This document shows positions 7,798-61,146 of a DNA stretch of 64,000 bases, piece after piece. Below the pieces are notes generated by a model that searched no databases, was not told the DNA's origin, and worked only from the letters and a program-made list of their open reading frames with translations. Source of the stretch: Patescibacteria group bacterium (GTDB lineage: Bacteria; Patescibacteriota; Minisyncoccia; JAHIHE01; JAGLIN01). The position numbers were made by a program, and so were the translations under genes. Positions within the stretch are counted from its first letter, which is position 1, and every line of letters starts with the position of its first letter. The stretch covers positions 14,885 to 78,884 of the forward strand of contig JAHYJV010000001.1 of assembly GCA_019428855.1 (NCBI GenBank), in the 5' to 3' direction.

Positions 7798-8084
7798 GAT
7801 TTGTCATTACTTAAATACAAGATTATGGATTCATGGTCTCGCGGGATCTTGGATGGCTAAATAGAATTTTTATTTTATAGAGAAAAGATCCCGTTGTCAT
7901 TCCGTACGCAGAGAAAAGAAGTTGAGGAATAGCTCTTTTTTTCAGTTATCATATAAATACTAATTTTTAAACTGGTCATTACCGCGGAGCAAGAATGACA
8001 ATTAAAGTCTAGGGTTAATAAGAAAGCTGTAAATGACAATCTGAAATATAATAAATAACTTTATTAAAAACTAATTTTAAACAT

Positions 8085-8549
8085 ATGACAAAAAAAAATA
8101 TCAAGAAGGTAGAAAAAATGGAAATTAAGAAGGATATGCCACAGGACCACTACTATACAAATTCAACACAATTACCAGTTAATTATACTGATGATTTATT
8201 TGAAGCAGTTGATTTACAAAATCCTTTGCAAACAAAATATACAGGTGGAACTGTGATGCATGCTTTTTTAGGTGAAAGATTGCCAAGTGGAAAAGAAGCA
8301 AAGCTGTTGGTAAAAAAAATATTTGAAAAATCTCAAATGCCATATCTTTCTCTTACTCCAACTTTTAGTGTTTGCCCAAATCATGGTTATCTTTCTGGTG
8401 AACATTTCACTTGTCCAAAATGCCTAATTGAACAACCTTGCGAAGTTTATTCAAGAGTAGTGGGATATTTGCGTCCTGTTCAACAATGGAATAAGGGAAA
8501 AGTTTCCGAATATGCGAGAAGAAAAGTATTTAAGGCTAAAATAAAATAA
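8085..8549 (+). CDS. Stand-alone NrdD C-terminal domain protein (glycyl-radical loop + Zn ribbon), copy 1
   Basis: YYTNSTQLPVNY...YTGGTVMHAFLGE...LTPTFSVCPNHGY...CPKC...YSRVVGYLRPVQQWNKGKVSEYARRKVF matches the C-terminal ~150 aa of anaerobic ribonucleoside-triphosphate reductase, including the RVxGY glycyl-radical motif. Confidence 0.8.
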   Translation: MTKKNIKKVEKMEIKKDMPQDHYYTNSTQLPVNYTDDLFEAVDLQNPLQTKYTGGTVMHAFLGERLPSGKEAKLLVKKIFEKSQMPYLSLTPTFSVCPNHGYLSGEHFTCPKCLIEQPCEVYSRVVGYLRPVQQWNKGKVSEYARRKVFKAKIK

Positions 8550-8673
8550 GATTGTTCAAGATTAACATTACCGCGGAGCAAGAATGACAATTAAAGTCTA
8601 GGGTTAATAAGAAAGCTGTAAATGACAATCTGAAATATAATAAATAACTTTATTAAAAACTAATTTTAAACAT

Positions 8674-9138
8674 ATGACAAAAAAAAATATCAAGAAGGTA
8701 GAAAAAATGGAAATTAAGAAGGATATGCCACAGGACCACTACTATACAAATTCAACACAATTACCAGTTAATTATACTGATGATTTATTTGAAGCAGTTG
8801 ATTTACAAAATCCTTTGCAAACAAAATATACAGGTGGAACTGTGATGCATGCTTTTTTAGGTGAAAGATTGCCAAGTGGAAAAGAAGCAAAGCTGTTGGT
8901 AAAAAAAATATTTGAAAAATCTCAAATGCCATATCTTTCTCTTACTCCAACTTTTAGTGTTTGCCCAAATCATGGTTATCTTTCTGGTGAACATTTCACT
9001 TGTCCAAAATGCCTAATTGAACAACCTTGCGAAGTTTATTCAAGAGTAGTGGGATATTTGCGTCCTGTTCAACAATGGAATAAGGGAAAAGTTTCCGAAT
9101 ATGCGAGAAGAAAAGTATTTAAGGCTAAAATAAAATAA
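8674..9138 (+). CDS. Stand-alone NrdD C-terminal domain protein, copy 2 (identical)
   Basis: The translation is identical to the ORF at 8085-8549. Confidence 0.8.
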   Translation: MTKKNIKKVEKMEIKKDMPQDHYYTNSTQLPVNYTDDLFEAVDLQNPLQTKYTGGTVMHAFLGERLPSGKEAKLLVKKIFEKSQMPYLSLTPTFSVCPNHGYLSGEHFTCPKCLIEQPCEVYSRVVGYLRPVQQWNKGKVSEYARRKVFKAKIK

Positions 9139-10975: not shown

Positions 10976-11065
10976 GAATTTTAATAGGGCTCAAAATAAA
11001 GACAGTTTTTTGAAGTTGTATCTCAATAGGGTTGTTTAAGTATATTCTTGGTTTATGTAATATTC

Positions 11066-11196
11066 TTGAATTACGAAATACAACATACTTGTCACCCTGA
11101 GCTTGTCGAAGTGTTGAAGTTGCAAGAAATACTACTAATCAAGATGAATTAACTTCGACAAGACCATCATGAGAAATTTAGCTATTTCATAATTCA
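11066..11196. mobile_element. MITE copy A (variant 1) with TIRs TTGAATTACGAAAT / ATTTCATAATTCAA
   Basis: It shares termini with five other copies and its internal sequence with copy B (43322-43454). Confidence 0.55.
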
Positions 11197-11342
11197 AAAT
11201 AATATACAATTTCTAAGGGACTGTCCTTTAATGGGTTGTTCGGTCTAATTTAAATTAACTCAGTAAAATGAGTTATTTTATTGATTCGCACAGGTTGATT
11301 AGTTTCTTTTTCTGTGATATAAATTATATATTGTTCAAATAT

Positions 11343-11413: not shown

Positions 11414-11467
11414 CAAACAAAATATCCGCCTTAGCTAGCGGTTATTTTATTATTATCCCAATATATT

Positions 11468-11598
11468 TAATTCCTTTGAATTACGAAATGCTGTTTTCTT
11501 GTCTTCTCGAATAATATGAGAGATCTTAAAATACGGGAAATGAAACTAAATTTATTTTTAGACCATTCCGTCGCTACCGCTCTTTCGGGATGACAAAG
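11468..11598. mobile_element. MITE copy C (variant 2), truncated and lacking the 3' TIR
   Basis: The 5' TIR and internal sequence match copies D and F; the element ends at ..GGGATGACAAAG. Confidence 0.45.
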
Positions 11599-11656
11599 TA
11601 TGCTGAGTTCAGGTGCTTGATATGTTGGTTTTGATGTAATGTGCAATAGATTCTGA

Positions 11657-11818
11657 ATTACTTTGAATTAGGAAATGCTGTTTTCTTGTCATCTCGAACA
11701 ATATGAGAGATCTTAGAATATGGGAAATTAAAATAGATTTAATTTTAGATCCCTTTGTCGCTACCTCTTTTTCAGGATGACAAAAAAAGAAATGCTAATT
11801 TCGTAATTCAAAGTAATT
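11657..11818. mobile_element. MITE copy D (variant 2), complete with 21-bp TIRs AATTACTTTGAATTAGGAAAT / ATTTCGTAATTCAAAGTAATT
   Basis: Inverted termini read directly; the internal sequence is about 90% identical to C and F. Confidence 0.6.
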
Positions 11819-12116
11819 CATTAGTTCTTGACATTATTTTTTATCAGATATATACTTATGATACTTACTTACCAACTGGTAAGTAAGTAAACAAGAGACA
11901 ATAAAGGAGGAAAAAAGTATATCGAATTTAATTAAAAAAAAAGAGATATTTTTACGAAAAATCTCTTGTATAGTGTTTTTTAATTTAATTTTTCTTCGAA
12001 TAATACGCAGAAAAATTAAGCACAGAGGCTTTCGGAATTTTTTGTAGAAAAAAATATTTTTCTACACCTTTTAAAATTACAATTTTCAATATTAAGCAAT
12101 TATTAAAATATTACAT

Positions 12117-18928: not shown

Positions 18929-19885
18929 ATGATTGAAAATATTGCCATAATTATATTAGCCTTATTATCTCAGATTAATATTGTTACAGGTGATGCAGGA
19001 CTAAACCAGATATTAAATCAATTTGTAAAAAATGATTCAGTTAATGTCTCTACTAATAAAGAGAATTGGAATACATATAAAATTATTTCTGAAAATGAAG
19101 CAGAAATACGGCCTTTACCTTCTAGGATTAAAAATAATAAGATTAACATAGACTCAAGCTCGGCGATTGCCTTTGATGTGGGAACGGACTATATTCTGTA
19201 TTCAAAGGATATAAAAAAAAAGTTGCCCATAGCAAGTTTGACAAAAATTATGACATCAATAATTGTATTAGAAAATAATAATCTTGATGATGTCGTGGTA
19301 ATAAATCAAAGTGCTCTTCAGACCGAAGGAAGAAAGGTGGGTCTGTTGACAGGAGAAAAGATTACTGTGGATAATTTATTAAAGATTATGTTAGTAAGTT
19401 CAAATAATATCGCTGCCGTTGCTCTTGCGGAACATACGGGTGGGGATGTTAAAAATTTCGTTGAGTTAATGAATCAAAAAGCAAAAGTTTTAGGGCTTGA
19501 TGATACCGAATTCTATAATCCAACTGGTTTAGATGAAGTAAATATCAACATATCTACTGCTTATGATGTTGCTCAATTAGTTGATTATGCTTTAGAAAAG
19601 TCAATTATCTGGGAATATTCCAAAACTAAAAGTGTTACAGCGAGCTCTGTAGATGAAAAAATAAATCACAAAGTAAATAATACCAATCAATTGTTAGGAG
19701 TAATGGAAAATGTGATAGGTGGGAAAACTGGCTTCACGGATATGGCAGGTGAATGTTTGATGATAATCCGAGCTGACCCTAGGGATGAAAATAATCGAGT
19801 TATTACTGTCGTGCTTAATGCCCAAGATCGATTTATGCAAACGCAGAGATTACAAAATTGGGTTTGGGAAAATTATAAGTGGTAG
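18929..19885 (+). CDS. D-alanyl-D-alanine carboxypeptidase (S11 PBP5/6-like)
   Basis: SxxK (ASLTK), SxN (SSNN) and KTG (KTGFT) motifs with an N-terminal signal/TM segment. Confidence 0.8.
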   Translation: MIENIAIIILALLSQINIVTGDAGLNQILNQFVKNDSVNVSTNKENWNTYKIISENEAEIRPLPSRIKNNKINIDSSSAIAFDVGTDYILYSKDIKKKLPIASLTKIMTSIIVLENNNLDDVVVINQSALQTEGRKVGLLTGEKITVDNLLKIMLVSSNNIAAVALAEHTGGDVKNFVELMNQKAKVLGLDDTEFYNPTGLDEVNINISTAYDVAQLVDYALEKSIIWEYSKTKSVTASSVDEKINHKVNNTNQLLGVMENVIGGKTGFTDMAGECLMIIRADPRDENNRVITVVLNAQDRFMQTQRLQNWVWENYKW

Positions 19886-19917
19886 TGTTAATTTTATCAT
19901 TTTGTGAAATGAAAATT

Positions 19918-20268
19918 ATGAGCATAGAAAATATGACAACAAAAGAGATTTGTTCGGAAAGTGAATTTCGTGATACTCTTCTTATGGAGTTGCTAAAAAC
20001 GAAAGAAACTGGAATTACTAGTAAGGATTTGTTCAATGTTATGCAGGTCGCTATTCCCGATGACATTAAAAAACCTAAACTTGCTCAACTAAATGATGTT
20101 TTAAGAGAGCTGGCAAGCAAAGGACTTATTACTATTAATAGTATTTTGGAAAAGGGAAAATATCAATATTTTGACATTTATCCAAATGATATTATTAAAG
20201 TCAGTCCTCAGGAAAATAATAGTTTATTGAGCTTGTTAAGAAAAAGGGATGATGATAATAATAAGTAA
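19918..20268 (+). CDS. Hypothetical protein, possible winged-helix fold
   Basis: Start placed at MSIENM to avoid a long overlap with the preceding gene. No diagnostic motif. Confidence 0.4.
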   Translation: MSIENMTTKEICSESEFRDTLLMELLKTKETGITSKDLFNVMQVAIPDDIKKPKLAQLNDVLRELASKGLITINSILEKGKYQYFDIYPNDIIKVSPQENNSLLSLLRKRDDDNNK

Positions 20269-20497
20269 CTATGTTATCCCGAGTGACGAAAGGAGGCGAG
20301 GGGTCACTCTCTCTTTAATCACGCTAAACATTATTAAATGTCAATCCCAATTAAGAGCGATTCCTCTATCTTTCTGCCATTCTTCTCGGAATGACAGTTG
20401 AATATTGCTCTTTTTTTGATGACAAAATTTCAAAGTTAAAATAAAAACATGCGAAAAATGAAAAAATAATAAATATTTTTCTACAAAAAAAAGCATA

Positions 20498-22890: not shown

Positions 22891-23100
22891 GTTTACAATT
22901 GCTTTATTTTAAGTAATTTATTGTCATTTCAGATCCCATTTGGTAAGAAATCTCTTAGTGGATTTTTTCAGAAAACATAATAAATATCAGAATAAAATCT
23001 AGAAAATCTTTCAATTATACCTCATTTCGAGATAATAAATAATATAATTTTAGTTTAACATAAATATCGAGAATGATGAATAGAAAATGATGAAATTTCT

Positions 23101-23262
23101 AATTACTTTGAATTACGAAATACCTCCTTTTGTCATTTCGAAATGAGCGATAGCGATTGAGAAATCCCTTCAACAATGTAAATAGCGATAATAATATTGA
23201 AGGGATTCCTCGCTTAAGGCTCAAAATGACACAAAAATTTGCATTTCGCAATTCAAAGTAAT
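23101..23262. mobile_element. MITE copy E (variant 3) with TIRs AATTACTTTGAATTACGAAAT / ATTTCGCAATTCAAAGTAATT
   Basis: It carries an internal 11-bp inverted repeat AATCCCTTCAA/TTGAAGGGATT and ends 60 bp upstream of a GT4 gene. Confidence 0.6.
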
Positions 23263-23322
23263 TATTGACACTCCAGACCATAGGCTTATAATTAAAGCAG
23301 TAAATAACTAATTTGTAAATAT

Positions 23323-40130: not shown

Positions 40131-41540
40131 TTATTTTTTTCTAAGCCTAGTTTCTTTTGAGGTGTCTTTGACAGTGAAACCTTTCATTTCAATCTCTGTT
40201 CGTAATTTATCTGAGAGATCCCAATTTTTGTTTTCTCTGGCTTTATTTCTTCGATTCACTAAGTTACTAATTTCTTGAGGAATATTTTCTTCCGGAGAAA
40301 TATTGTTTAATTCAAATCCAAAAACTTCATCAAATTTTAGCAATGTAGCTTTTTTGTCTTCCGTGTTGAAATTTTTTGACTTTATCATTTCCCAGGTGAT
40401 TGCTAATGCTTTTGGGCTGTCTAAATTATTTTCTAAAGCTTCTTTAAACCTTGTTTCGTAGTCCGCAATAATTTTACCATTATTATTTTTGCAAGATTTC
40501 AAGAAGGTGTAAATCTTATTCAGAGTAGTTTGATTTGCCTCGAGGCTTTTCCAAGTAAAATTTAACTTAGATTGATAGTGGGCAGTTAAAAACAAATATC
40601 TAAGTGATAGGGGATGAAAACCTTTTTCTTTCAATTCTTGCAAAGAATAAGAAGTTCCTTCTGATTTGGCCATTTTTTTATTATCCACGAGGAGATGTTC
40701 ATTGTGAAGCCAATAATTTGCAAATGTCACACCGTTTGCGCTTTCACTTTGAGCAATTTCGTTCGTATGGTGGACGGGAATATGTTCAATACCTCCCATA
40801 TGTATATCAAGTGTATTTCCAAGATATGTTTTGCTCATCACGGAACATTCAATGTGCCACCCAGGAAAACCATTTCCGTTTTCAACAAGTTTGGATGTGA
40901 AAGGGGACGACCAAAATTGTAAAGCATGCTGGTGTTTTCCGGCTTTGAAAAACCAGAGGGCAAAATCGGAGGAATGTTTTTTTTGCGGGTCGCTTATTTC
41001 ACTTTTCCCAGCACCTTGAATGTTTTCTTCCATAATTTGTCCTGATAATTTTGTATAGTTTTTTACTTTTGACACCTCAAAATATATAGCTAAATCTGTT
41101 GTGTAGGCATACTTTTTTTCAATCAAGGTTTGAACCATTTTAATTATTGCGTTGATGTGTTGAGTGACTCGTGGCTTAACTGTTGGCTCAAGCAGGTTTA
41201 ATTCTTTTGTATCTTGTTCAAAAATGGCAATATATTTCTTGGCAATTTCTTCAGGACTTGTGCCTTCTCGGCGAACTCCTTTTTCCATTTTGTCCTCACC
41301 TTCATCGCCGTCAGATGTGAGATGTCCTACGTCGGTATAGTTTCTGACATGCGTTACTGCATAGCCGAGATATTTAAATGTTCTCACAGCAAGGTCAGCA
41401 CAAAACATTCCTCGTAAATTTCCGATATGCTGAGTCCAATAAACGGTGGGTCCACAATGATAAAGCTTAATTTTTTCTTTCTCTATTGGCTCAAATTCAC
41501 GCATACTCTTTGAGAGGGTATCATAAAGTTTAATTGTCAT
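40131..41540 (-). CDS. cysS: Cysteinyl-tRNA synthetase
   Basis: HIGH (HIGN) after CGPTVY, and KMSKS (KMAKS). Confidence 0.9.
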   Translation of the reverse strand: MTIKLYDTLSKSMREFEPIEKEKIKLYHCGPTVYWTQHIGNLRGMFCADLAVRTFKYLGYAVTHVRNYTDVGHLTSDGDEGEDKMEKGVRREGTSPEEIAKKYIAIFEQDTKELNLLEPTVKPRVTQHINAIIKMVQTLIEKKYAYTTDLAIYFEVSKVKNYTKLSGQIMEENIQGAGKSEISDPQKKHSSDFALWFFKAGKHQHALQFWSSPFTSKLVENGNGFPGWHIECSVMSKTYLGNTLDIHMGGIEHIPVHHTNEIAQSESANGVTFANYWLHNEHLLVDNKKMAKSEGTSYSLQELKEKGFHPLSLRYLFLTAHYQSKLNFTWKSLEANQTTLNKIYTFLKSCKNNNGKIIADYETRFKEALENNLDSPKALAITWEMIKSKNFNTEDKKATLLKFDEVFGFELNNISPEENIPQEISNLVNRRNKARENKNWDLSDKLRTEIEMKGFTVKDTSKETRLRKK

Positions 41541-41609
41541 ATTATATATTTGGTTAATATTATCTAGTATTTAAATTATTGCATAATTTCGGAAAAATGC
41601 AAATAAAAA

Positions 41610-41716
41610 GGCTCTACACTAATTAGTGTGGTTGATAACTAAAGAAGTGGTAGAACGATATTGATAAATTAACAATTCATGTCACTCCTTTGAAAAATGT
41701 AATCAAAAACTCGTTT
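41610..41716 (+). repeat. Conserved intergenic module R1-R2, copy 1, containing the perfect 14-bp palindrome ACACTAATTAGTGT
   Basis: GGCTCTACACTAATTAGTGTGG...GTGGTAGAA..ATATTGATAAATTAA..CACTCCTTTGAAAAATGTAATCAAAAACTCGTTT. Homologous copies lie at 43257-43504 and 59698-59803. Confidence 0.55.
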
Positions 41717-41928
41717 AAAATTTCATCATAGGTGGCGGTAAAAGCCGAGAAGTCCCTATTAATCGCACTAAGTCTTATCAAACATCAATTCCGAGCTATA
41801 AACGATTCCTTTATGCAGTTTTACTATTATTGGAATGACAGTTAAAAATTATTATATTTTAATCATCATCTGTTTTGAAAAAAGCTAATAAAAAACAGCC
41901 TATTGGCGTTTAATTTAGCGGGAGAGTA

Positions 41929-41988
41929 GGGTAGCTGTAGCAACGAACTCCAGCTACCCCATGTGTTCCTTTTTCGGAACATTTTTTA
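41929..41988 (+). terminator. Two consecutive hairpins plus a T-run (GGGTAGCTG..CAGCTACCC; TGTTCC-TTTTT-GGAACA-TTTTTT), an orphan terminator or small RNA 3' end
   Basis: Read directly. Neither flanking gene is on the plus strand. Confidence 0.3.
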
Positions 41989-42264
41989 TTACATTAAATA
42001 TATCAATTAACTATAATAATGTCAATAGCACAAATATGGTGACAAATAAAAGGAAAAATATACTTATCCACATTTTACAGAAAAGTGAATTGGTGCGGTG
42101 TACTGAATATTGAAATACAAAATTTAGATTAAATATCTAAATTTAGCGTGGTTAGTTTTTTTCAAAGCCCATCTTTACATTATAATATTTTTTTAAAAAA
42201 CAAAAAAACTTGTAGCTAAGGATTTTTGTTTATACAAACTTTAAGATTTTGATTATTGCTAGTG

Positions 42265-43182
42265 TTATAACCATGTTTTGAATTTGAAATAAACAAATGA
42301 AATTGAAGTTACGAACATCATGAAAAATATTACAGTCCAAAATCCGTATGGTTGATTTTCAAAAGGCATCCCGTTAGTGACATTCATGCCGAAGACATTG
42401 GCTATGAGTGAGAGGGGAAGCATAATAACGGAAAATGCGGTCAAAATCTTCATGGTATTGTTTAATTTATAAGACAAAAGGGATTCGTTAGTATGCTCTA
42501 GGGCTTCAATCATTTCTTTGTGATTTTCTAAAGTATTCCATACTTTGATGTTTGAACCGATTACTTCGGTGGAAAGTCTGGTTAAATTCGAATCAGAAAT
42601 TTTTGTAATATTTCGAGAAAGAATTTCAAGAACCATTCTCTGTGGTTTCATTATTCTTCTGAAACTGATGATATCGTGTTTGACAATGGCAATTTCACTA
42701 ACCATCTTTCTTTCATCTCCATTAAAAATTCCATCCTCGACATTACTAATATGATCATCAATGTGATCAAGCATAGGCATTCTGGTATCAATTAGTTTGT
42801 CTAATATTTTAAAGATAAGTTCTCCAGCATTATTTTTCAGATAGTAGTTTTTTGCCAGTTCATGAGCATTGCATTTTTCATATATTTTTTTGAGTTCAGG
42901 TAAAGACCCATTGTGACTAGTGATGAGAGTATCATTGAATAAAAGTATATCAAGTTCTGTTGCAGTTGTTTTTCTAATTTTCCTATTAAAAACTGGAAAA
43001 TGGATGACGATAAAAAAATAATCCTTGTAAATTTCAACTTTAGGTCTCTTTATTTTTGGGACATATTCTCTGAGGATTGATGGACAAATATTAAAATCAC
43101 GTTTCAAATATTCTACAGTATTTTTATTTGGATTTTCAATGTCAATCCATTTTACTTTACCATTTTGGATTTCTTGTTGCAT
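42265..43182 (-). CDS. corA: CorA-family Mg2+/Co2+ transporter
   Basis: GMN signature (FGMNVTNGMPFEN) followed by two C-terminal TM helices. Confidence 0.8.
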   Translation of the reverse strand: MQQEIQNGKVKWIDIENPNKNTVEYLKRDFNICPSILREYVPKIKRPKVEIYKDYFFIVIHFPVFNRKIRKTTATELDILLFNDTLITSHNGSLPELKKIYEKCNAHELAKNYYLKNNAGELIFKILDKLIDTRMPMLDHIDDHISNVEDGIFNGDERKMVSEIAIVKHDIISFRRIMKPQRMVLEILSRNITKISDSNLTRLSTEVIGSNIKVWNTLENHKEMIEALEHTNESLLSYKLNNTMKILTAFSVIMLPLSLIANVFGMNVTNGMPFENQPYGFWTVIFFMMFVTSISFVYFKFKTWL

Positions 43183-43256
43183 ATATTATTTTAATAAAAA
43201 ATTTAAGATCATTATCGTTATTATACAGTTTTTTAAAACGATTGACAAATAATTTG

Positions 43257-43504
43257 GGCTCTACACTAATAATTGTGGTGAAAAGCTAAAGAAGTGGTAG
43301 AATTATATTGATAAATTATTTTTAAATTACAAAATTCAACATACTTGTCACCCTGAGCCTGTCGAAGGGTTGAAGTTACAAGAAATATTATCAATCAATA
43401 TGAATTTACTTCGACAAGCTCACCATGACAAATTTAGCTATTTCGTAATTCAAAAGAATAAACAATACACCACTCCTTAGAAAAATGATATCAAAAAACT
43501 GTTT
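43257..43504 (+). repeat. R1-R2 module, copy 2, split by the insertion of MITE copy B
   Basis: R1 (43257-43318) and R2 (43471-43504) are contiguous in copy 1 but separated here by about 150 bp carrying the MITE. Confidence 0.55.
43322..43454. mobile_element. MITE copy B (variant 1)
   Basis: AAATTACAAAATTCAACATACTTGTCACCCTGAGCCTGTCGAAGG...CTTCGACAAGCTCACCATGACAAATTTAGCTATTTCGTAATTCAAAAG is about 85% identical to copy A. Confidence 0.55.
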
Positions 43505-43571
43505 TTATATATCAAGTATTTGCTTTTCTCTCAAGCCCCTTGACGCATTTTCTAAAACTATTATAATGTAA

Positions 43572-43598
43572 TTAGCACTCTCGTAGTGCAAGTGCTAA
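43572..43598 (+). promoter_or_regulatory. CIRCE operator (TTAGCACTC-N9-AAGTGCTAA) upstream of hrcA
   Basis: Matches the CIRCE consensus TTAGCACTC-N9-GAGTGCTAA at 17 of 18 positions. Confidence 0.8.
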
Positions 43599-43614
43599 TC
43601 GGTCTAGAATAATT

Positions 43615-44358
43615 ATGGAAAGTCGGCAAGAAATTATATTGACTGCAATTATAAAGGAATATGTAAGTTCTGCAATTCCTGTCGGATCTTCGTTGATATT
43701 TGAAAAGTATAATTTGAATGTTAGCTCGGCTACGATTCGAGCGGAAATGATGGAGCTGGAAAATTGTGGATATCTGTATCAGCCCTATACTTCCGCAGGA
43801 AGAATTCCGACTGATCAAGGATTTCGATATTTTGTGGATGAGTTGATGAAGGATAAAAAATTGACGCAAAAAGAGCAAAATTCTTTGCAGGTTGAAGTGC
43901 TGAAATTGAAAGCACAAAATAGGATGCTTGCTCGGACGACTGCGAAGTTACTTTCTCAGATGTCTGATAATCTGGCTGTGAGTGGTGTGATTGGCTCGGA
44001 TGATTTTCAAAAGGCTGGATTACAAAGACTTTTTTCCAAACCAGAGTTTCAAAATTCAGACAGTGTTTGTCGAGTTGCCGAAGTGCTTGATTATATCGAT
44101 GAGAGTATAGATGCTCTTTCGAATGAATTGAAAAATAAATCAGAAGTGGAAGTTTATATCGGCAAAGAAAATCCAATTTGTGCCGTGGATGAATGTAGTA
44201 TGGTTATTTCAAAATATTCGTTGGAAAGTGGTGAAGAGGGACTGCTGGCGATTATTGGTCCGAAGAGGATGAAATATTCCCATAATGTTTCTTTGATTGA
44301 TTATTTGAAAAAGCTACTGAGTGGAGGAGTTATGATAATTTTGATAATTTTGGTCTAG
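43615..44358 (+). CDS. hrcA: Heat-inducible transcription repressor HrcA
   Basis: N-terminal wHTH (ILTAIIKEYVSSAIPVGSSLI) and a position preceding grpE. Short form, 247 aa. Confidence 0.85.
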   Translation: MESRQEIILTAIIKEYVSSAIPVGSSLIFEKYNLNVSSATIRAEMMELENCGYLYQPYTSAGRIPTDQGFRYFVDELMKDKKLTQKEQNSLQVEVLKLKAQNRMLARTTAKLLSQMSDNLAVSGVIGSDDFQKAGLQRLFSKPEFQNSDSVCRVAEVLDYIDESIDALSNELKNKSEVEVYIGKENPICAVDECSMVISKYSLESGEEGLLAIIGPKRMKYSHNVSLIDYLKKLLSGGVMIILIILV

Positions 44359-44392
44359 AATATTTAAATAATATAATCTTATAGTTTAAAAT

Positions 44393-44926
44393 ATGTCCAG
44401 CGAAAATAAAGAAAAAATGCAAAAAGAAAAGCAAAAAATATCTTCAAAAAAAGTTAATAAAGAAGTTGAAGAATATAAAAAAAAGGCGGAAGACAATTTG
44501 ATTTGTTGGCAGAGAACACAGGCTGATTTTCTCAATTATAAAAAAGATCAAGAGAAATATTTGGGCGAGTTTCGAAAGTATGCCAATGAAGATATTATTC
44601 TGAGCCTACTTCCAACAATTGACAGTTTTGTACTTGCGACTAATTATTTGCCAGATGATTTGAAGGATTCTGATTGGGTGAAAGGGATTTTGTGCATTAA
44701 GGGACAGTTTGATGGATTTTTGAAAGAAGTGGGAGTTGAGGAAATTAAATCCATGGGAGAAAAGTTTGATCCAAATTTGTTTGAATCGGTTGGCGAAGAA
44801 GAGTCAGACGAAGAAGAGGGAACAGTGGTTGTGGAAATTCAAAAAGGGTATAAGATGGCAGAAAAAGTGATTCGGCCGGCGAAAGTGAAAATTGCGAAGG
44901 GGAAAGAGGAGAAAGTGGAAAATTAA
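44393..44926 (+). CDS. grpE: Nucleotide exchange factor GrpE
   Basis: Coiled-coil N-terminus and a conserved C-terminal beta domain (DPNLFESVG...VVVEIQKGYK). Confidence 0.85.
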   Translation: MSSENKEKMQKEKQKISSKKVNKEVEEYKKKAEDNLICWQRTQADFLNYKKDQEKYLGEFRKYANEDIILSLLPTIDSFVLATNYLPDDLKDSDWVKGILCIKGQFDGFLKEVGVEEIKSMGEKFDPNLFESVGEEESDEEEGTVVVEIQKGYKMAEKVIRPAKVKIAKGKEEKVEN

Positions 44927-45333
44927 TTAGTTTGAATTAAGAAATATTAATTATCATTTCGTGGGAGTGATAACGATGAGAAATCTATCTATAAAATTAA
45001 GCTTACTCAGCCTACTTTCAGATTTCTCGATCATATCTCACTTCGAGATGACAGTGAATATATATTTTTTCAATAAAATAAAAAAAGACGAAAAGTTTTA
45101 TGTTTAACTTTCCGACTGCAACATTTATCCTTTTTTTGTTTTCCGTACCCAATTATAGGTGCAGTCAAGATTGCATGTAGTGCCATATAAATTGTACTTA
45201 TGACAATACTAAGAATAATAATGTTTGGTATTTCTATAAGTAAAATGTTTTCGGTAAAATGGAAAAAATAAAATATGTCAGATGATTAACAGAAAAAAGA
45301 AGCCTTAAATAATTTAATAAATAATAAAAAAAT

Positions 45334-45510
45334 ATGTCAAAACTTTACAAATGTGCAAAAGGGTGTGGGAGTATTGAAGAAAGTGATGCGAAAAAAATCC
45401 CTACTTGTTGTAATGAGCCAATGGTTGAAACAAATGAAGAAGAATTATTCAGTTGTCCAGGTTGCGCTGGTTGTCACACTGGATGTGGAAGTACAAAAGA
45501 AGAAGCATAA
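45334..45510 (+). CDS. Unannotated 58-aa cysteine-rich protein (8 Cys: CxxxC..CC..CxxCxxCxxxC), putative metal-binding
   Basis: MSKLYKCAKGCGSIEESDAKKIPTCCNEPMVETNEEELFSCPGCAGCHTGCGSTKEEA. Clean ATG-to-TAA ORF between grpE and hsp20; below the ORF-track length cutoff. Confidence 0.45.
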   Translation: MSKLYKCAKGCGSIEESDAKKIPTCCNEPMVETNEEELFSCPGCAGCHTGCGSTKEEA

Positions 45511-45567
45511 AGTCAATTGTTAATACTATGTTTTTTTTAATCCTTAAGCTAAAAGGAGGTGATAAAT

Positions 45568-45999
45568 ATGGATATTATAAAATGGAGTCCCTTTGGGGAG
45601 ATGGATAAATTTTTTGCGGCGGAAGACTTTTTCCCAGTAATTCCGGCATTGTCCCGCAAGTCAAAACCAGCGATGGATATCTATCAAACCAAAGATAGTA
45701 TCGTAGCTGAGGTTGCATTGGCAGGAATCGATCCAAAAGATGTGGAAGTCTTAGTGGAAAATGATGTGCTTACGGTCAGGGGAGAGACAAGGAAAGAAAA
45801 AGAAACCAAAGAAAAAGACTATTACTGTAAAGAAATTAGATCTGGAAGTTTTACTCGTGCGATGAGTTTGCCTGTTCATGTGAAAGCAGAAAGTGCTCAA
45901 GCAGAAAGTAAAGATGGAATATTAATGATTACAATCCCCAAGGATGAAAAGAAAATGCTCAAGAAAATTCCGATTAAGATAGCTAACAAGAATAAATAA
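45568..45999 (+). CDS. Hsp20/alpha-crystallin family small heat-shock protein
   Basis: Alpha-crystallin domain (MDIYQTKDSIVAEVALAGIDPKDVEVLVENDVLTVRGE). Start placed at the ATG 6 nt after the AAAGGAGGTG Shine-Dalgarno sequence; the track uses GTG at 45559. Confidence 0.85.
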   Translation: MDIIKWSPFGEMDKFFAAEDFFPVIPALSRKSKPAMDIYQTKDSIVAEVALAGIDPKDVEVLVENDVLTVRGETRKEKETKEKDYYCKEIRSGSFTRAMSLPVHVKAESAQAESKDGILMITIPKDEKKMLKKIPIKIANKNK

Positions 46000-46123
46000 A
46001 ATGAATGAATTTGGAAAATTAGGAGACCGACCAAGTGCCGGCTCTCCAGAAGATGAAGTTGTGAAAACAGTTTTATCTTTTGGGGAGTTTGATTAAATTT
46101 AAATAAATTAATAATAAAAAAAT

Positions 46124-48064
46124 ATGGGTAAAATACTAGGAATCGATCTTGGAACAACAAACTCTGCGATGGCAATTGTCGAAGCAGGGGAACCAAGAAT
46201 ATTAGAAAATAAAGAAGGAAACCGAACTACACCTTCAATCGTAGCTGTGAATAAATCTGGAGAAAGACTTGTGGGAGTTGTGGCGAAAAGACAATCCGTC
46301 ACAAATCCTGAAAATACGATTTTTTCCGTGAAGAGATTGATTGGCAGAGGATTTGAGGATGAAGAAGTTCAAAGAGATTTAAAATTATTGTCATACAAAA
46401 TTACCAAGTCAAACGGTGGTGTGACAGTGAAAATCGGTGATAAAGAGCACACCCCACAAGAAGTTTCCGCTATGATTTTGCAAAAGTTGAAAGCGGATGC
46501 GGAGGAAAAATTGGGTGAGAAAATTACGGAAGCGGTGATTACTGTCCCAGCATATTTCAATGATTCTCAACGACAAGCAACCAAAGATGCTGGTAAAATC
46601 GCTGGCCTTGAGGTGAAAAGAATTATCAACGAACCAACAGCCGCAGCTCTGGCTTATGGTTTTAATAAAAAGAAAGACGAAAAAATTGTGGTTTATGATT
46701 TGGGAGGGGGAACATTTGATGTTTCAGTTTTGGAAGTCGGAGATGATGTCGTGGATGTAAAAGCGACAAACGGAGACACGCACTTGGGTGGTGATGATTT
46801 TGATCAAAGAATTATTAGTTGGATTGTGGATGAATTTAAAAAAGATCAAGGTGTTGACCTTTCCCAAGATGTAATGGCCTTACAAAGATTAAAGGAGGCT
46901 GCTGAAAAAGCAAAACATGAACTTTCGACATCTGTTGATACAGAGATTAATCAGCCGTTTATTAGTGTCGATGAAAATGGTCCAAAGCATTTGAATTTGA
47001 AATTGACCAGAGCGAAACTGGAAGAGCTTGTTGATGATTTAGTACAAGGAACACTTGTGCCATGCAAAAAAGCTCTCGAGGATGCGAAATTAAGCGTGGT
47101 TGACATTAATGAAGTAATTTTAGTTGGTGGGATGACAAGGATGCCTATTATTCAAGAAACCGTAAAGAAATTTTTCGGAAAGGAACCACATAAGGGTATT
47201 AATCCTGATGAAGTCGTGGCTCTGGGAGCTGCAATTCAAGGTGGTGTTTTAGCAGGTGATGTAAAGGATGTTTTGCTTTTGGATGTGACTCCACTTTCAT
47301 TTGGAATCGAAACTCTTGGTGGAGTTTCTACAAAATTAATTGAAAGGAATACGACAATTCCAACGGCAAAGACTCAAATATTTTCAACCGCCGCAGATAA
47401 CCAGCCGTCAGTTGAAATTAATGTTATTCAAGGTGAAAGGGAAATGGCAGTTGATAATAAGTCTTTGGGAAGATTTATCTTGGACGGAATTCCACCTTCA
47501 CCAAGAGGATTGCCACAGATTGAGGTGACATTTGATATTGATGCAAACGGAATTTTAAATGTCAAAGCAAAAGACAAAGCCACGAACAAAGAACAGTCAA
47601 TACGAATTGAAGCTTCATCTGGGCTTTCCAAAGAAGAAATTGAAAAAATGACAAAGGATGCAGAGATTCATGCTGAAGATGATAAGAAAAAAAGAAAACA
47701 GAATGAAGTGAAAAATAGTGCCGATACACTTGTTTATTCTACGGAAAAACTTTTGCGAGATTCTGGAGATAAAATTAAGGAAGAAGACAAGAAATCAGTT
47801 GAAGAAAAGGTAGAGGCTTTAAAAAAAATTAAAGATGGTGAAGATTTTGAAGCTATTGAAAAAGCTTCAGAAGAGCTTTCGCTTGAAGCTCAGAAAATTG
47901 GAACTGCTATGTATCAACAGGCTCAAGAAAGCGTGGATGCCGAGAAGGCTAAAAAAGAAGAAGCTGATAAAGGTCCTGTAGAAGGGGAGTTTGAAGAAGT
48001 GCAAAATGAAGAGAAGAAAAGTGACGAGCAGACCAAAAAAGATGATGACAGTGAAAAGAAATAA
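46124..48064 (+). CDS. dnaK: Molecular chaperone DnaK
   Basis: [16 protein letters not shown], and a full Hsp70 architecture. Confidence 0.95.
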
Positions 48065-48119
48065 ATAATTCAATTGGCTCCATATTCTGCTGTGGAGTCT
48101 TTTGTGATTTAGTTTCAAA

Positions 48120-48153
48120 AAACAGCGACTGTCTTTGTCGTTGTTTTTTTGAT
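48120..48153 (+). terminator. Terminator after dnaK (ACAGCGAC-N7-GTCGTTGT + T-run)
   Basis: Read directly. Confidence 0.4.
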
Positions 48154-48220
48154 GAAAAAGTCTTGCTAAAGGTTTTATATTAAAATGTTGAAGTATATGT
48201 TTCCGTGGTGTTTAATACAT

Positions 48221-48391
48221 TTAATATAATATAAAATTTTTAATTGGTTCAAACCAACCTTCTCTTAAACCAGCTTTGATGAATCCAGCGAGAAGAAGAA
48301 AAACTAGCACTTGCATAAACCGATTAGCTGCTTTTGTTGGTAAAGGTTTGCCAACATAGGCTGAGGTGCTATTCCATTTGGACTTTGACAT
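48221..48391 (-). CDS. Possible 56-aa small membrane protein (MSKSKWNSTSAYVGKPLPTKAANRFMQVLVFLLLAGFIKAGLREGWFEPIKNFILY)
   Basis: ATG-to-TAA ORF below the track cutoff with a single TM segment. Confidence 0.3.
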   Translation of the reverse strand: MSKSKWNSTSAYVGKPLPTKAANRFMQVLVFLLLAGFIKAGLREGWFEPIKNFILY

Positions 48392-48962
48392 ATGGTTAGT
48401 AAGTTAGATTATTATATAATATTCATAGTAGACAAGTACCTTTACTTTACTGGAAAAAGGGAGAATTGACAAGAGTTATTTTTTATACTAAACTAATCGT
48501 AGTAATTTCCATTGAAATCTATATAAATAATGATAGATTAATGATGTGGAATAAAAGAGGGATAAAATGAGTAAAATAATAATAAAAGATAAAATTGAAG
48601 ATAATAGAAGAAAACGGAATCGCGCAGGCGATCCGTACCCAGAAGACCTTATTGCAAGGTCAAATAGGGAAGTAGTTTTATATATGGGGGATCGGCAATA
48701 AGTAAGAGAAGAAAGGGAATTATAAAGAAATTGAATATCAAAAAAAGATTATTCTGCTTATAGTTCTCTCTTCTTCTCTGAAAACTTTTTTAAACAGAAA
48801 ATCGCAGCTGTTGGCTGTTTTTTTTGTTTTGGTAAATTTTAGAATGGCAAATTATGGAGGAAACTGTGGATAGAGGTTATTTGTCAAAAAGTAAAAAAGG
48901 GAGCATACTAAAAGTTAAGAAAGGGTTGTTTTCTTATGTTAAATCAATAAATAGATAATTCT

Positions 48963-49316
48963 ATGAAAATACAACGAGCAAAAAATCCAAAGGCTCTTAC
49001 TGGTTTTGAGCAGATGCATTTGCCTTGGATTTCATTTCCTGAATTTATTAAGATTGGAGAGGAATTTGATTTGGTCGTGAAAATTGGAGAAGTTTCTCAT
49101 CCCATGACTAGTGAACATTATATCAGATGCATTCGGCTTTATATTAATGAAGAGCAATTTGAATGCCAGATTTTAAAAGACAAAAAGAAAGCACAAGCTG
49201 ATTTTAAAATTAAGCTTGAAAAGGATTCTACTATTACCGTTGTGACGGAATGTAATTTTCACGGAGCATGGGAAGCCAAGAAGAAAATTATTTTATATCG
49301 TGGAAACGGGGAATAG
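48963..49316 (+). CDS. Superoxide reductase (neelaredoxin/desulfoferrodoxin-type 1Fe-SOR)
   Basis: EQMHLP, HPMTSEHYIRCIRLY and CNFHGAWE match the SOR iron-site motifs (E..H.P, HP..EHHIR.IEL, CN.HG.WE). Confidence 0.75.
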   Translation: MKIQRAKNPKALTGFEQMHLPWISFPEFIKIGEEFDLVVKIGEVSHPMTSEHYIRCIRLYINEEQFECQILKDKKKAQADFKIKLEKDSTITVVTECNFHGAWEAKKKIILYRGNGE

Positions 49317-53035: not shown

Positions 53036-54289
53036 TTGATACTCGTTACTTTTTTTATGAACATAGCTCAAACTATTAAATCATCTCTTGTAAATTTAGC
53101 CGTAAACAAATTTCGGTCTTTTTTGACGATGTTAGGAATGATTATTGGAGTTGGTTCTGTAATTGCAATAATGTCCATTGGAGCAGGAGCACAAAGTTTG
53201 ATTTTTAATGAAATTACATCCTTCGGCACAAATTTAGTTGGAGTTATTCCGGGAGGAAGTGAAGAGGGTGCTCCTCCAGCTGCGATGATGGGTGTTATGA
53301 TAACTACTCTAACTTATGAAGATGCGAAGGCAATTGGCAATATTCCCCATATTCTGGCTGTAACACCCTATTCCAATGGGAATGCTAATCTTTCTTATGG
53401 TGACAAAACGAAAAATGCAGGTTTTGTGGGAGTTTCCTCACAATATCTTGGAGTAGAAGAAAACAAAGTCAGTCAAGGCCGATTTATTTCTGCCGCGGAA
53501 GACGAAAGCACCACGAGGATTGTCGTTTTAGGTTCGGAGATTAAAGAAGCTTTATTCGGTGAAAATAATCCTATAGGAGAGAGAATTAAAATAGATCAAA
53601 CAAGTTTTGTGGTTGTGGGAGTTATGGAGAAAAAAGGTTCTTCTTTAGTAGCAAATAGAGATAAGAATGTTTTTATTCCTGTAAAAACGGCACAGAAAAC
53701 TTTGCTAGGAGTTAATCATGTTGGACTGATTAGAGTGAAAATTGATGATGAAAAAAAAGCACCTCTAGTAATTAGTGAAATAAAAAAGCTTTTGCAACAG
53801 AGACATAATATTAAAGACCCTAAGAAAATTGATTTCACAGTTCAGAGTATGAGCCAGGCACTTGATATGATTGGAACGGTGACGGATGCCTTGAACGCAT
53901 TTCTGGGTGCAATCGCGGCAATTTCACTTTTGGTTGGGGGAATTGGAATTATGAATATTATGCTTGTAAGTGTAACAGAAAGAACCAGGGAAATTGGACT
54001 TCGAAAGGCATTGGGTGCAAAAAGAAAAAATATCATAAGTCAATTTTTGACTGAGTCGATTGTCATTACTTTTATAGGTGGTTTGATTGGTATCGTTGGA
54101 GGTTCTCTTTTTGCAGCTATTATTGCTGTAGGTGTGCAATATTGGGGATATGATTGGGATTTAGTAATTACTTCTTTTTCTGTAATTCTTTCTTTTTCTA
54201 TCGCAGTTATAATTGGACTTCTTTTCGGAATTTATCCTGCTAAAAAAGCGGCTAGTCTCAATGCAATTGAAGCACTAAGACATGAATAG
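53036..54289 (+). CDS. ABC transporter permease, FtsX/MacB-type (N-terminal TM, large extracytoplasmic domain, three C-terminal TM)
   Basis: C-terminal GIGIMNIMLVSVTERTREIGLRKALGA motif typical of MacB/LolCE permeases. Confidence 0.8.
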   Translation: MILVTFFMNIAQTIKSSLVNLAVNKFRSFLTMLGMIIGVGSVIAIMSIGAGAQSLIFNEITSFGTNLVGVIPGGSEEGAPPAAMMGVMITTLTYEDAKAIGNIPHILAVTPYSNGNANLSYGDKTKNAGFVGVSSQYLGVEENKVSQGRFISAAEDESTTRIVVLGSEIKEALFGENNPIGERIKIDQTSFVVVGVMEKKGSSLVANRDKNVFIPVKTAQKTLLGVNHVGLIRVKIDDEKKAPLVISEIKKLLQQRHNIKDPKKIDFTVQSMSQALDMIGTVTDALNAFLGAIAAISLLVGGIGIMNIMLVSVTERTREIGLRKALGAKRKNIISQFLTESIVITFIGGLIGIVGGSLFAAIIAVGVQYWGYDWDLVITSFSVILSFSIAVIIGLLFGIYPAKKAASLNAIEALRHE

Positions 54290-54737: not shown

Positions 54738-55997
54738 ATGTCAAGACTGCCAATTAAAACTCTCAAACTCGCCATTGTCGGATTAAAGGCGAATATGACT
54801 AGGACAGCCCTTTCGGTGCTGGGTATTGTGATTGGAGTGGCGGCGGTGATTGTGATTGTTTCAGTCGGTCAGGGATTAAAAGTTTTAATTGTCAATCAGA
54901 TTAGTGTGTTTGGAGATAATATGATGAGCGTGCAAGTTAAAATTCCAGGAAGTGATTACAGATCTTCAATGCAATCAATGGTTGAAGGAACGGTGATTAC
55001 CACGCTGAAATATGAGGATGTTGAGGCGGTGAGAGATAAAGAAAGATTTCCCTACATCAAATCGGCTTCTGGTTATGCGGCGGGAATGGATTGGGCAACT
55101 TATCGGGAAAAAGAGAAACAGGTGATGATTATTGCCAGTGATGCCTTTTATCCTGATATTGATGGACAACTCAAAATTGCTACGGGGCGATATTTTTCCA
55201 GTGAAGAAGAAAGGGGTATAGTTAGGGTCGTTGTAATTGGGAGTAAGATTGCTGATGATTTTTTTCGAGGAGAAAATCCAATCGGCAAGCAGATTAAAAT
55301 CAAACAGATTGGTTTCAAAGTAATTGGAGTGATGCAAGAAAGAGGACTTGTGATGACAATGGATTGGGACACAATGGTTTATATCCCTTTAAAAACTTCC
55401 CAAAAACTTATTACCGGAGTTGATCATCTACTTGAGTTTGCCATGGTTATGGAAGATGATCAACATTTTGCACAGGCAGAAGTGGAAATTACGCAGTTGC
55501 TCCGCCAGCGACATAATATTGATGACCCTGCGAAAGATGATTTTGAAATTATGTCAATGGATCAAATAATTAAAATTGTTAATACGGTAACAAGTGTGAT
55601 TTCTCTGTTATTGGGTTTGCTGGCGGCGATTTCATTGATTGTCGGAGGGGTTGGGATTATGAATATTATGTTAGTTATTGTCACAGAAAGAACATGGGAA
55701 ATTGGACTTCGAAAATCAGTCGGTGCCAAGCGAAAGGATATTTTAAATCAATTTGTGACAGAAGCGGTATTGATATCAGTCCTGGGGGGAATTATTGGTA
55801 TAATAGTCGGAATTACAGTTTCTTTTGTTATCACAATTGCTGTCAGGGCATATGGCTTTGACTGGCCGTTTGTCATTTCAATGGAAGCAATAATTATCGC
55901 ATTTTTGACGGCCGCATTTTTTGGGATTGTATTTGGTTGGTATCCAGCGAAAGAAGCTGCAAAATTAAACCCAATAGATGCATTAAGGCAGGAGTAG
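54738..55997 (+). CDS. ABC transporter permease, FtsX/MacB-type, paralog of 53036-54289
   Basis: Same architecture, with VGIMNIMLVIVTERTWEIGLRKSVGA. Confidence 0.8.
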   Translation: MSRLPIKTLKLAIVGLKANMTRTALSVLGIVIGVAAVIVIVSVGQGLKVLIVNQISVFGDNMMSVQVKIPGSDYRSSMQSMVEGTVITTLKYEDVEAVRDKERFPYIKSASGYAAGMDWATYREKEKQVMIIASDAFYPDIDGQLKIATGRYFSSEEERGIVRVVVIGSKIADDFFRGENPIGKQIKIKQIGFKVIGVMQERGLVMTMDWDTMVYIPLKTSQKLITGVDHLLEFAMVMEDDQHFAQAEVEITQLLRQRHNIDDPAKDDFEIMSMDQIIKIVNTVTSVISLLLGLLAAISLIVGGVGIMNIMLVIVTERTWEIGLRKSVGAKRKDILNQFVTEAVLISVLGGIIGIIVGITVSFVITIAVRAYGFDWPFVISMEAIIIAFLTAAFFGIVFGWYPAKEAAKLNPIDALRQE

Positions 55998-59367: not shown

Positions 59368-59697
59368 TTGACATAAGTCTGTTTATTAGAAAAAAGGTTC
59401 TTTGTCAAAATTTGTGGTGGTTAAGCATCGAAGTGGAACAAATGCTGATATAACCTTGGCTATATAATTTTGTCTGAAAGAAATGAGTAATTTAATAGTT
59501 CTTCTGGCTGGAGCGATAGCGGAGTGGAGTTTTACTGAAAACGCCGTGCTGTGAAATTACGGTCAAATTTTAGCTCTCGTAACATTTGACACTCCTGGAA
59601 ATTTGATTGTGCTTAGTTGGGGATTAATATCGGTAAAGATTTAGTAAGTCAAAGAGAGACTACTAATATCCTCTCGTCACTCTAGACAACATTTGAA

Positions 59698-59803
59698 AAC
59701 AGTTTTTTGATATCATTTTTCACAGGAGTGGTGGGAATTGTTAATTTATCAATATACTTCTTTTATTTTTTCATCTATCCACTATAATAATTAGTGTAGA
59801 GCC
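59698..59803 (-). repeat. R1-R2 module, copy 3 (reverse orientation)
   Basis: The reverse complement reads GGCTCTACACTAATTATTATAGTGG...ATATTGATAAATTAACAATTCCCACCACTCCTGTGAAAAATGATATCAAAAAACTGTT. Confidence 0.5.
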
Positions 59804-59844
59804 AAAAGAAATTGAATTTTTTATGTTAGTATTTAATGAAGTTT

Positions 59845-59995
59845 TTTGAATTACGAAATGAGCATTTCTTTTTTTGTCATCCCGAAAGAGCGGTAGCGAC
59901 GAAGGGATCTAAAAGTAAAGCTAGTTTCATTTCCCGTATTTTAAGATCTCTCATATTGTTCGAGATGACAAGAAAACAGCATTTCGTAATTCAAA
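59845..59995. mobile_element. MITE copy F (variant 2, reverse orientation relative to C/D)
   Basis: TTTTTGAATTACGAAATG....ATTTCGTAATTCAAAGG. It ends 30 bp upstream of a GT4 gene. Confidence 0.6.
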
Positions 59996-60024
59996 GGAAG
60001 TTATAAAATTAACTATATTAATGT

Positions 60025-61146
60025 ATGAAAATTGGAATAGATGCTAGAAGTCTTGAGAATTCAAAAACTGGAGTTGGCAGATATCTGTCTAACTTATTGA
60101 AATTTTGGAAGAATGAAAAGAGTATCCAGTTTGTTCTTTATTTTAAGGATCAAATTCCCAAAGAAGAGCTCGCTGATACTGATAATTTTGAAAAAGTGTT
60201 GTTGAAAAATCCACTTGGTTTTTCGAGTAATTTTTTCTTTCAGCATTTTTTGTTGCCCAATCGTCTTAAAAAAGATAAAATTGATTATTTCTTTTCTCCA
60301 TTTTATCTCAAGCCGATTTATTGTCCCGTAAAATCATCTATAGTCCTTCATGATATTTCTTATGAAGCTCATCCAGAGTGGTTTGATTTTAAAAGTCAAT
60401 TTGTCTTAAGAATGCTTTCAAGATATTCTGCTAAAACAGCACAGAGAATATTTACTGTTTCGTTTTATAGTAAAAAGGAGATTATTAAATACTACGGTAC
60501 TGATTCTGAAAAAATTACAGTGACTAATTTAGCTCCCGATGATAGTTTTTCAAAAATTGAGGATTTGGATAAAATAAAAACCATGAAAAAAAAATATGGC
60601 ATTGTAAAGAAATTTATTTTTTGCATTGGAACAATTTTTTCTAGAAGACATATCAGTGAAATTATTGAGGCATTTGAAAAGATTTCGGATAAAAGCTTGG
60701 AATACCAACTTTTAATTGTCGGAAAAAACGTGACGCATCCTTTTGTTGATATTGATAAAAAAATAGAGCTAATCAATCAGAATATTAAAAATAATAGCAT
60801 AATCCATCTTAATTCCGTTTCTGAGCAGGAATTAATGGCTTTGTATAGCTCTTGTGATTTTGTCATTTATCTCTCTGATTATGAGGGATTTGGTTTACCT
60901 GTGATTGAAGCTCAGTTTTTTGGCAAAGCTCTGCTTACAAGCTATAATACATCGTTGATTGAAGTAGGGGGAAATTCAGTTGAATTTGTGAAGGAAAACA
61001 CGACAGAAGAAATTCAGAGATCCATGGAGAAAGTTATTTTTAATGAAGATTACAAGGGCCAGCTAGTGCAAAAGGGTGCTGAGAATTTAAAAAGGTTTAG
61101 TTGGGAGAAGTCTGCAATGGAGACACTGAATAAGTTATTATATTGA
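60025..61146 (+). CDS. Glycosyltransferase family 4
   Basis: C-terminal EGFGLPVIEAQFFGKALL motif. Paralog of 23323-24480. Confidence 0.8.
   Translation: MKIGIDARSLENSKTGVGRYLSNLLKFWKNEKSIQFVLYFKDQIPKEELADTDNFEKVLLKNPLGFSSNFFFQHFLLPNRLKKDKIDYFFSPFYLKPIYCPVKSSIVLHDISYEAHPEWFDFKSQFVLRMLSRYSAKTAQRIFTVSFYSKKEIIKYYGTDSEKITVTNLAPDDSFSKIEDLDKIKTMKKKYGIVKKFIFCIGTIFSRRHISEIIEAFEKISDKSLEYQLLIVGKNVTHPFVDIDKKIELINQNIKNNSIIHLNSVSEQELMALYSSCDFVIYLSDYEGFGLPVIEAQFFGKALLTSYNTSLIEVGGNSVEFVKENTTEEIQRSMEKVIFNEDYKGQLVQKGAENLKRFSWEKSAMETLNKLLY

Follow-up and report, generated by a model that had tools for sequence, protein, structure and literature searches.

A repeated upstream module in a Patescibacteria genome is best explained as the left arm of a composite miniature transposable element

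A repeated module of about 107 bp, found upstream of cysS, corA and a GT4 glycosyltransferase gene in the 64,000-nucleotide stretch of Patescibacteria DNA analyzed here (the window), is most probably one arm, the left, of a miniature inverted-repeat transposable element (MITE) of composite structure. The original prediction placed three copies in the window, and all were confirmed in position and orientation: W1 at 41610-41716 (+), W2 at 43257-43318 plus approximately 43461-43506 (+), and W3 at 59697-59803 (-). Distances of 70 bp to cysS and 75 bp to corA were likewise as predicted, and the GGCTC end faces the gene start in the window copies and in five additional copies with readable context. 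Neighboring genes are CysS (40131-41540, -), CorA (42265-43182, -), HrcA/GrpE (from 43615, +) and the GT4 glycosyltransferase (60025-61146, +). The proposed boundary of 107 bp had to be abandoned, as homology runs on to 41886 in the first copy and to 59396 in the third. A non-autonomous element was among the readings originally offered and proved essentially right, although the module appears to be one arm of a MITE and not something that MITEs insert beside.

A non-autonomous transposon is an ordinary kind of object, MITEs being common, and this one is newly described for the lineage. Its identity as a MITE removes one candidate regulon or small RNA. Mobile DNA has been little characterized in Patescibacteria (CPR), where genomes of roughly 1 Mb offer it little room, and the window holds at least three nested MITE families.

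Extent and anatomy of the element

The full extent of the element was established by aligning 850 bp from each copy and then building a profile of full copies. The profile matched 41610-41848, 59803-59567 and positions 7129-7368 of a related locus (L001), with nhmmer E-values of 1e-14 to 2e-69 across copies. Element length varies from 231 to 589 bp, with stop codons in all frames and no ORF. The left terminal repeat reads GGCTCT-ACACTAATAAC-TGTGGTGG and is followed by about 80 bp of subterminal sequence and then by a nested MITE of about 120 bp. The right arm closes with CCACCACA-N11-AGAGCC, which mirrors the left end in inverted orientation, and carries an outward-facing TTGACA 7 nt from its tip. 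In L001, L006 and W3 this far end reads CCACCACA-N-ATTTTGACAAAGAGCC, and in W1 it is degenerate; its reverse complement, GGCTCT-TTGTCAAAATG-TGTGGTGG, has the same spacing as the left end. Left and reverse-complemented right ends are identical at 22 of 36 positions in L006 and 19 of 36 in L001, the 11-nt spacers of the two repeats differing throughout. The terminal repeats take the forms GGCTCTTTGTCAAAA..GTGGTGG on the right and GGCTCTACACTAAT..GTGGTGG on the left, and the right arms of L001, L006 and W3 end in TTTTGACAAAGAGCC. Within the Patescibacteria DNA examined, the bipartite motif GGYTCT-N9-14-GTGGTG is confined to element ends; beyond this DNA it matched just four times, in glycine-codon repeats of unrelated viral contigs.

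The three window copies differ in completeness. W1 opens with the terminal repeat GGCTCT-N11-TGTGGTtG, and its left arm (41610..41716, +) leads into a nested small MITE (41721..41840, +; ends TTTCATCATAGG ... GGAATGACA) and a shortened, degenerate right arm (41841..41886, +; …GTTTTGAAAAAAGCT) that can be aligned to its counterparts in L001, L006 and W3. In W2 an unrelated MITE of about 150 bp divides the left arm into two parts (43257..43318 and 43461..43506, both +); the copy ends with the second part and lacks the nested MITE. No recognizable right arm was found in W2 or in L002. W3 is a full composite copy of 408 bp (59396..59803, -), comprising the left arm (59803-59697), the nested small MITE (approximately 59691-59574) and a right arm (59573-59396) that reads out to TTTTGACAAAGAACC.

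The middle of the element, with TGTYATYCCGAG and CTCGGAATGACA as its bounds, aligns over its full length with copies that stand alone at window positions 20272-20396 (+, TGTTATCCCGAG ... CTCGGAATGACA, nhmmer E 3e-14) and at L187 3811-3692, and is therefore a separate MITE of about 120 bp nested in the master copy. Because of this nesting, the 107 bp first described correspond to the left arm as far as the nested insertion. The nested MITE is partly deleted in L002 and L006. The full-copy profile also matched 20271-20402, a stretch without a left arm; we considered and rejected 20272-20396 as a truncated copy of the main element, since what lies there is the nested small MITE in complete form.

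Two blocks of the left arm are invariant. GGCTCTACACTAAT is unchanged in all eight copies, which elsewhere are 78-87% identical, and ATATTGATAAATTA is unchanged in the seven copies not cut by a contig end, including all three from the window. Most simply, these blocks would be transposase-binding sites kept constant in the master copy.

The 14-bp palindrome ACACTAATTAGTGT, to which the original prediction gave prominence, is indeed perfect in W1 but is not a trait of the family, being perfect in only that one copy of the eight. Five copies from a second genome (below) read ACACTAATAACTGT at this position, a majority sequence that is not symmetric, and no dyad-symmetric site conserved across the eight copies was found. 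Perfect 14-bp palindromes number nine in the window against 8.4 +/- 2.5 expected from composition-matched shuffles.

Evidence for insertion and relationships among copies

W1 is flanked by a perfect 8-bp target-site duplication, AATAAAAA, at 41602..41609 and 41887..41894 (8/8 match). Deletion of 41610-41894 in silico yields GGCTGTTTTTTATTTGCATTTTTCCGAAATTATGCAATAAT, which aligns base for base with the element-free cysS upstream region of a related locus, L064. Flanks of L006 (CAATGTGT/TTATGTGT) match at 6 of 8 positions, as do those of W3 (AGAAAAAA at 59388-59395 and AAAAGAAA at 59804-59811), where the sequence is of low complexity. No target duplication was found at L001.

Related loci were fetched through homologs of CorA (L059-L064) and of the GT4 glycosyltransferase (L185-L187), and the left arm is absent from all of them. 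The corA/hrcA site is empty in L059, L060, L062 and L064, and the HU/GT4 site is empty in L185, L186 and L187, in which only 112 bp separate the two genes. Presence/absence polymorphism was thus seen at three orthologous sites: corA/hrcA, cysS and HU/GT4. The CorA of L064, a non-carrier, is 94% identical to that of a carrier, the metagenome-assembled genome (MAG) 'Patescibacteria group bacterium C14-28', with the window as outgroup at 77-81%. Absence from L064 despite this identity implies gain or loss on short time scales. Judged by these comparisons, the element is an insertion relative to related genomes and has been gained or lost between close relatives.

One genome per species was scanned with a sequence pattern, which recovered five further copies, all in C14-28 (L001, L002, L003, L006 and L008), along with three chance hits in unrelated bacteria. 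Copies therefore number three in the window and at least five in C14-28. Two of the latter, L003 2439-2497 and L008 190-260, sit at the ends of C14-28 contigs 25 and 11, a position usual for collapsed repeats, which suggests that the assembly broke at the repeat and that more copies exist than were assembled. Among themselves, the five left arms from C14-28 agree at 55-59 of 59 positions. Left arms of the window match the C14-28 consensus at 54, 55 and 46 of 59, each lying nearer to the consensus than to the others. By these identities, the copies form the star-like pattern of a transposon family.

Synteny links L002 to window 42482-49150, with nucleotide identity of 71-78%. The left arms of W2 and L002 share 54 of 59 positions, whereas the adjacent corA coding DNA is 75% identical; such conservation could mean function rather than recent insertion. 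The flanks of the two corA-site copies also resemble each other, yet an arm at 54/59 beside coding DNA at 75% would argue for either recent independent arrival or constraint.

Searches further afield gave no sign of the element. A metagenome scan with ATATTGATAAATTAACAATT returned 50 loci, all chance or coding matches and none of them the element. Among viral contigs, the left-end 14-mer gave 120 chance hits, none confirmed by nhmmer, and the right-end motif gave no hits. A blastn comparison of the 408-bp copy with plasmids and phages produced no match.

Placement at the upstream edge of resident promoters

Seven of the eight copies are adjoined, just beyond the GGCTC end, by an outward-reading sigma-70-type promoter with a score of 9/12 or more, and in five the score is at least 10/12. 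The -35 hexamers of those seven begin 5, 6, 8, 8, 8, 8 and 9 nt from the element, a result to be set against a background in which 2.8% of window intergenic positions, counted in both orientations, reach 9/12 at offsets of 4-10. The eighth copy, W3, adjoins an extended -10 promoter without a -35. All of these promoters read outward, and orientation is identical in 8/8 copies. The bias toward promoter edges is statistically solid on a small sample of eight copies at seven independent sites.

The -35 and -10 hexamers lie outside the target duplication and not inside a repeated unit with which they would travel. At cysS, the promoter TTTGCA-17-AATAAT with TG (41575..41603, -) starts 6 nt outside the element and is homologous to the promoter of element-free L064. 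At corA, the promoter TTGTCA-17-TATAAT (43220..43248, -; 11/12) has its -35 starting 8 nt outside the element, and TTGTCAA-N17-TATAAT persists almost unchanged in L060, L062 and L064, all without the element. At the GT4 gene, the extended -10 promoter TGtTAGTAT (59824..59832, +), its -10 hexamer 23 nt outside the element, has its homolog, TGtTAAAAT, at the unoccupied sites of L185, L186 and L187. Lying beyond the target duplication and already present in relatives, these promoters belong to the genes themselves, as they do at rpoB and other sites. We therefore rejected a mobile promoter cassette. A promoter-operator cassette for a dimeric regulator, offered in the original prediction, fares no better: the palindrome is not conserved, the sigma-70-type promoters of the neighboring genes lie outside the module, and homologous corA, cysS and GT4 promoters occur in relatives without it.

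Placement may reflect a choice of target at the upstream edge of promoters, for example through contact with the -35 heptamer TTGWCAA, and purifying selection in a compact genome may sharpen the outcome. The palindromic heptamer TTGWCAA occurs in five of the eight flanks and again in the right end of the element, 6 nt from the tip; further intergenic promoter-like sites with TTGWCAA in the window are unoccupied. At the corA site of both lineages the element lies 8 nt away in the same orientation, beside the TTGACAA of corA and not beside the -35 of hrcA. We tentatively propose a transposon with a homing preference for the upstream edge of sigma-70 promoters, always in one orientation, which would act via TTGWCAA or promoter-bound RNA polymerase and would have hit the corA promoter independently in two lineages, at the same nucleotide distance. 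If so, homing would give the element somewhere safe to insert in a genome that has hardly any DNA to spare. Target choice of this kind would also be a bacterial example of promoter-directed transposition and a useful natural marker of promoters in organisms beyond culture.

Placement could instead be the work of selection only, in which case the element would have no target preference, a compact genome would tolerate only insertions into the little dispensable DNA that separates a terminator from the core promoter following it, and homing to promoters would be no more than apparent. We regard this, too, as possible but doubtful. Patescibacteria genomes are gene-dense, in keeping with such an account. 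At the empty HU/GT4 site the T-tract of the HU terminator runs into the GT4 promoter with almost no free DNA, a space so short that placement there is forced, and the divergent corA and hrcA -35 hexamers of L064 are only about 38 nt apart. At cysS, however, the insertion abuts the -35 despite some 370 bp of non-coding DNA upstream, and about 720 bp are available at L006. Nor would selection only readily account for occupation of the corA site at the same 8-nt distance and orientation in two lineages, or for the uniform orientation of all eight copies. An unrelated MITE family of the same window, moreover, lands in another MITE and in a 5' UTR.

Several features of the surrounding intervals were recorded in passing. 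A CIRCE-type operator, TTAGCACTC-N9-AAGTGCTAA (window 43572-43598), lies upstream of hrcA-grpE and just downstream of a TTGACG-16-TATAAT promoter, an arrangement kept in every relative fetched. The corA-cysS interval of relatives (L060 and L062 10950-16200) holds a surface-type protein of about 1100-1200 aa and a histidine kinase; in L064 (1115-2445) it is 1.3 kb of non-coding DNA that may represent decayed remnants of these genes. In the window only about 370 bp of this interval is left (41895-42265); GGGTAGCTG...CAGCTACCC forms a strong hairpin there, and positions 41963-41982 resemble a terminator.

Relationship to known transposon families

The end signature and the 8-bp duplication fit a MITE of ISL3 type. 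ISL3 ends read GGCTCTTCG...GTGGTG with 8-bp direct repeats, and ISArsp7 of this family has the left inverted repeat GGCTCTTCGCGGTTGGTGGTGAAT and an 8-bp direct repeat (PMC6305408). A Microcystis aeruginosa MITE attributed to ISL3 has GGCTCTTCG repeats and 8-nt duplications (PMC11448079). Points in common are ends that start GGCTCTT with a GTGGTG block some 15-20 nt in (compare GGCTCTTCGCGGTTGGTGGTGAAT of ISArsp7 with the element right end, GGCTCTTTGTCAAAATGTGTGGTGG), the 8-bp target duplication, and the short, non-coding, multi-copy nature that the element shares with the ISL3 MITE derivative. Unlike ISL3, the left end of the element reads GGCTCTA, departing at position 7, and contains nothing of the TTGTCAA spacer; its GTGGTG block lies 3 nt further in than that of ISArsp7. 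Placement at promoter edges in fixed orientation is not noted for ISL3 in the literature consulted, which reports only general enrichment between tandem genes and near promoters.

The IS6 family (IS26, IS257/IS431 and IS1216) is the alternative. Its members have ends reading GGCACTGTTGCAAA and GGTTCTGTTGCAAAGTT, duplicate 8 bp, and carry an outward -35-like hexamer a few nucleotides from the tip that can form hybrid promoters. The element is similar in its ends (GGCTCTTTGTCAAAA and GGTTCTTTGTCAAAATT), its 8-bp duplication and its outward -35-like hexamer near the tip. IS6 terminal repeats are about 14-20 bp, whereas similarity in the element extends over about 30 bp and includes the GTGGTG block, and the resident promoters adjoin the element end that has no outward -35. 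Cointegrate formation is the route by which IS6 elements move, and they do not typically give rise to MITEs. Because IS6 ends are also similar and IS6 insertions also duplicate 8 bp, ISL3 appears the likelier source but is not established. Movement would presumably be effected in trans by a DDE transposase; none was found among the 28 window ORFs scanned or the called genes of the fetched loci.

Comparison was extended to other small intergenic elements. Like the Correia elements of Neisseria, the element is a short inverted-repeat sequence scattered in intergenic regions, close enough to gene starts that it may influence transcription. The target duplicated by Correia elements is TA, they bring outward promoters and IHF sites of their own, and they are found in either orientation, whereas the promoters adjoining the present element are resident and its orientation is fixed. 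Its position directly upstream of a -35 hexamer recalls operator or UP-element cassettes; unlike these, it has no conserved dyad or A-tract UP-like sequence, is missing where close relatives have the same promoters, and bears a target duplication and terminal repeats. IS200/IS605-like and IS110 bridge-RNA-like readings were considered on account of a subterminal hairpin and a possible circle-junction promoter (TTGACA-17-TAATAA), and were dropped because the hairpin is not conserved, the flanks have no specific target sequence in common and the 8-bp duplication is clean.

Regulatory and RNA readings of the module

Domestication of the module is an unlikely alternative to a MITE arm. The left arm would have been co-opted as a platform for an activator or repressor, or would add an outward promoter (TGtTAATTT, gene-facing strand), tuning housekeeping genes such as cysS, corA, rpoB and GT4. 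Such a role would be consistent with the invariance of GGCTCTACACTAAT and ATATTGATAAATTA, with a position fixed relative to the core promoter, and with a left arm more conserved than both the rest of the element and the adjacent coding DNA. The invariant blocks are, however, equally expected of transposase-binding sites in a master copy, and the same promoters do without the left arm in close relatives, including L064 with its CorA 94% identical to that of a carrier. The arm has neither a conserved palindrome nor a plausible operator symmetry, and a consensus scan gave no strong promoter inside it.

That the module, alone or with the adjacent conserved stretch, is a small RNA gene or cis-regulatory RNA, as the original prediction also entertained, is very improbable: an extended -10-like TGgTAGAAT/TATATT lies inside the arm and a hairpin, GAGTGAC...GTCACTC, with a few compensatory-looking changes lies in the adjacent stretch, but no Rfam family came at or near threshold over all copies even at a permissive E of up to 10, folding z-scores were -0.4 to +0.3 on both strands, the RNAalifold consensus of -1.75 kcal/mol had six pairs and no covariation (4-6 sequences only, hence low power), and copies differ by large internal deletions and insertions. 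The hairpin, along with its compensatory-looking changes, is part of the nested MITE and arises from pairing of that element's inverted-repeat ends. A small-ORF reading of the arm was rejected, start and stop positions not being conserved between copies.

Other MITEs and repeats in the window

The unrelated MITE inside the W2 left arm (43319..43460) belongs to a family with TTTGAATTACGAAAT ends and is 86% identical to window 11052-11210. Members of this family are inserted in the W2 arm, in the L001 copy and in the GT4 5' UTR beside W3. Window copies lie at 11052-11210, 11461-11597, 11648-11834, 23093-23266, 43319-43460 and approximately 59838-60010, and the family, with an inner core of GTCACCCTGAGC/GTCATCCCGA, is also present in C14-28. 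Two adjacent 40-nt repeats at 5316-5411 (TGTCATTGCGAGGAGC...GCAATCT), 75% alike, look like REP or small palindromic elements, and their core resembles that of the nested MITE. The stand-alone small MITE, starting at 20272, fills the gap between a 129-aa ORF without Pfam match (19879-20268, stop at 20266-20268) and the convergent rplT.

Two larger repeats involve coding DNA. A 300-bp tandem duplication, 97% identical (7955-8254 and 8544-8843), covers two 154-aa ORFs (8085-8549 and 8674-9138), each of which may encode a glycyl-radical domain on its own; the match of the first is confined to the C-terminal 136 positions of anaerobic ribonucleotide reductase NrdD. Adjacent ORFs at 53036-54289 (417 aa) and 54738-55997 (419 aa) have 190 nt in common at 72% identity; the former matches MacB/FtsX-type permease domains, and the arrangement suggests tandem ABC-transporter permeases.
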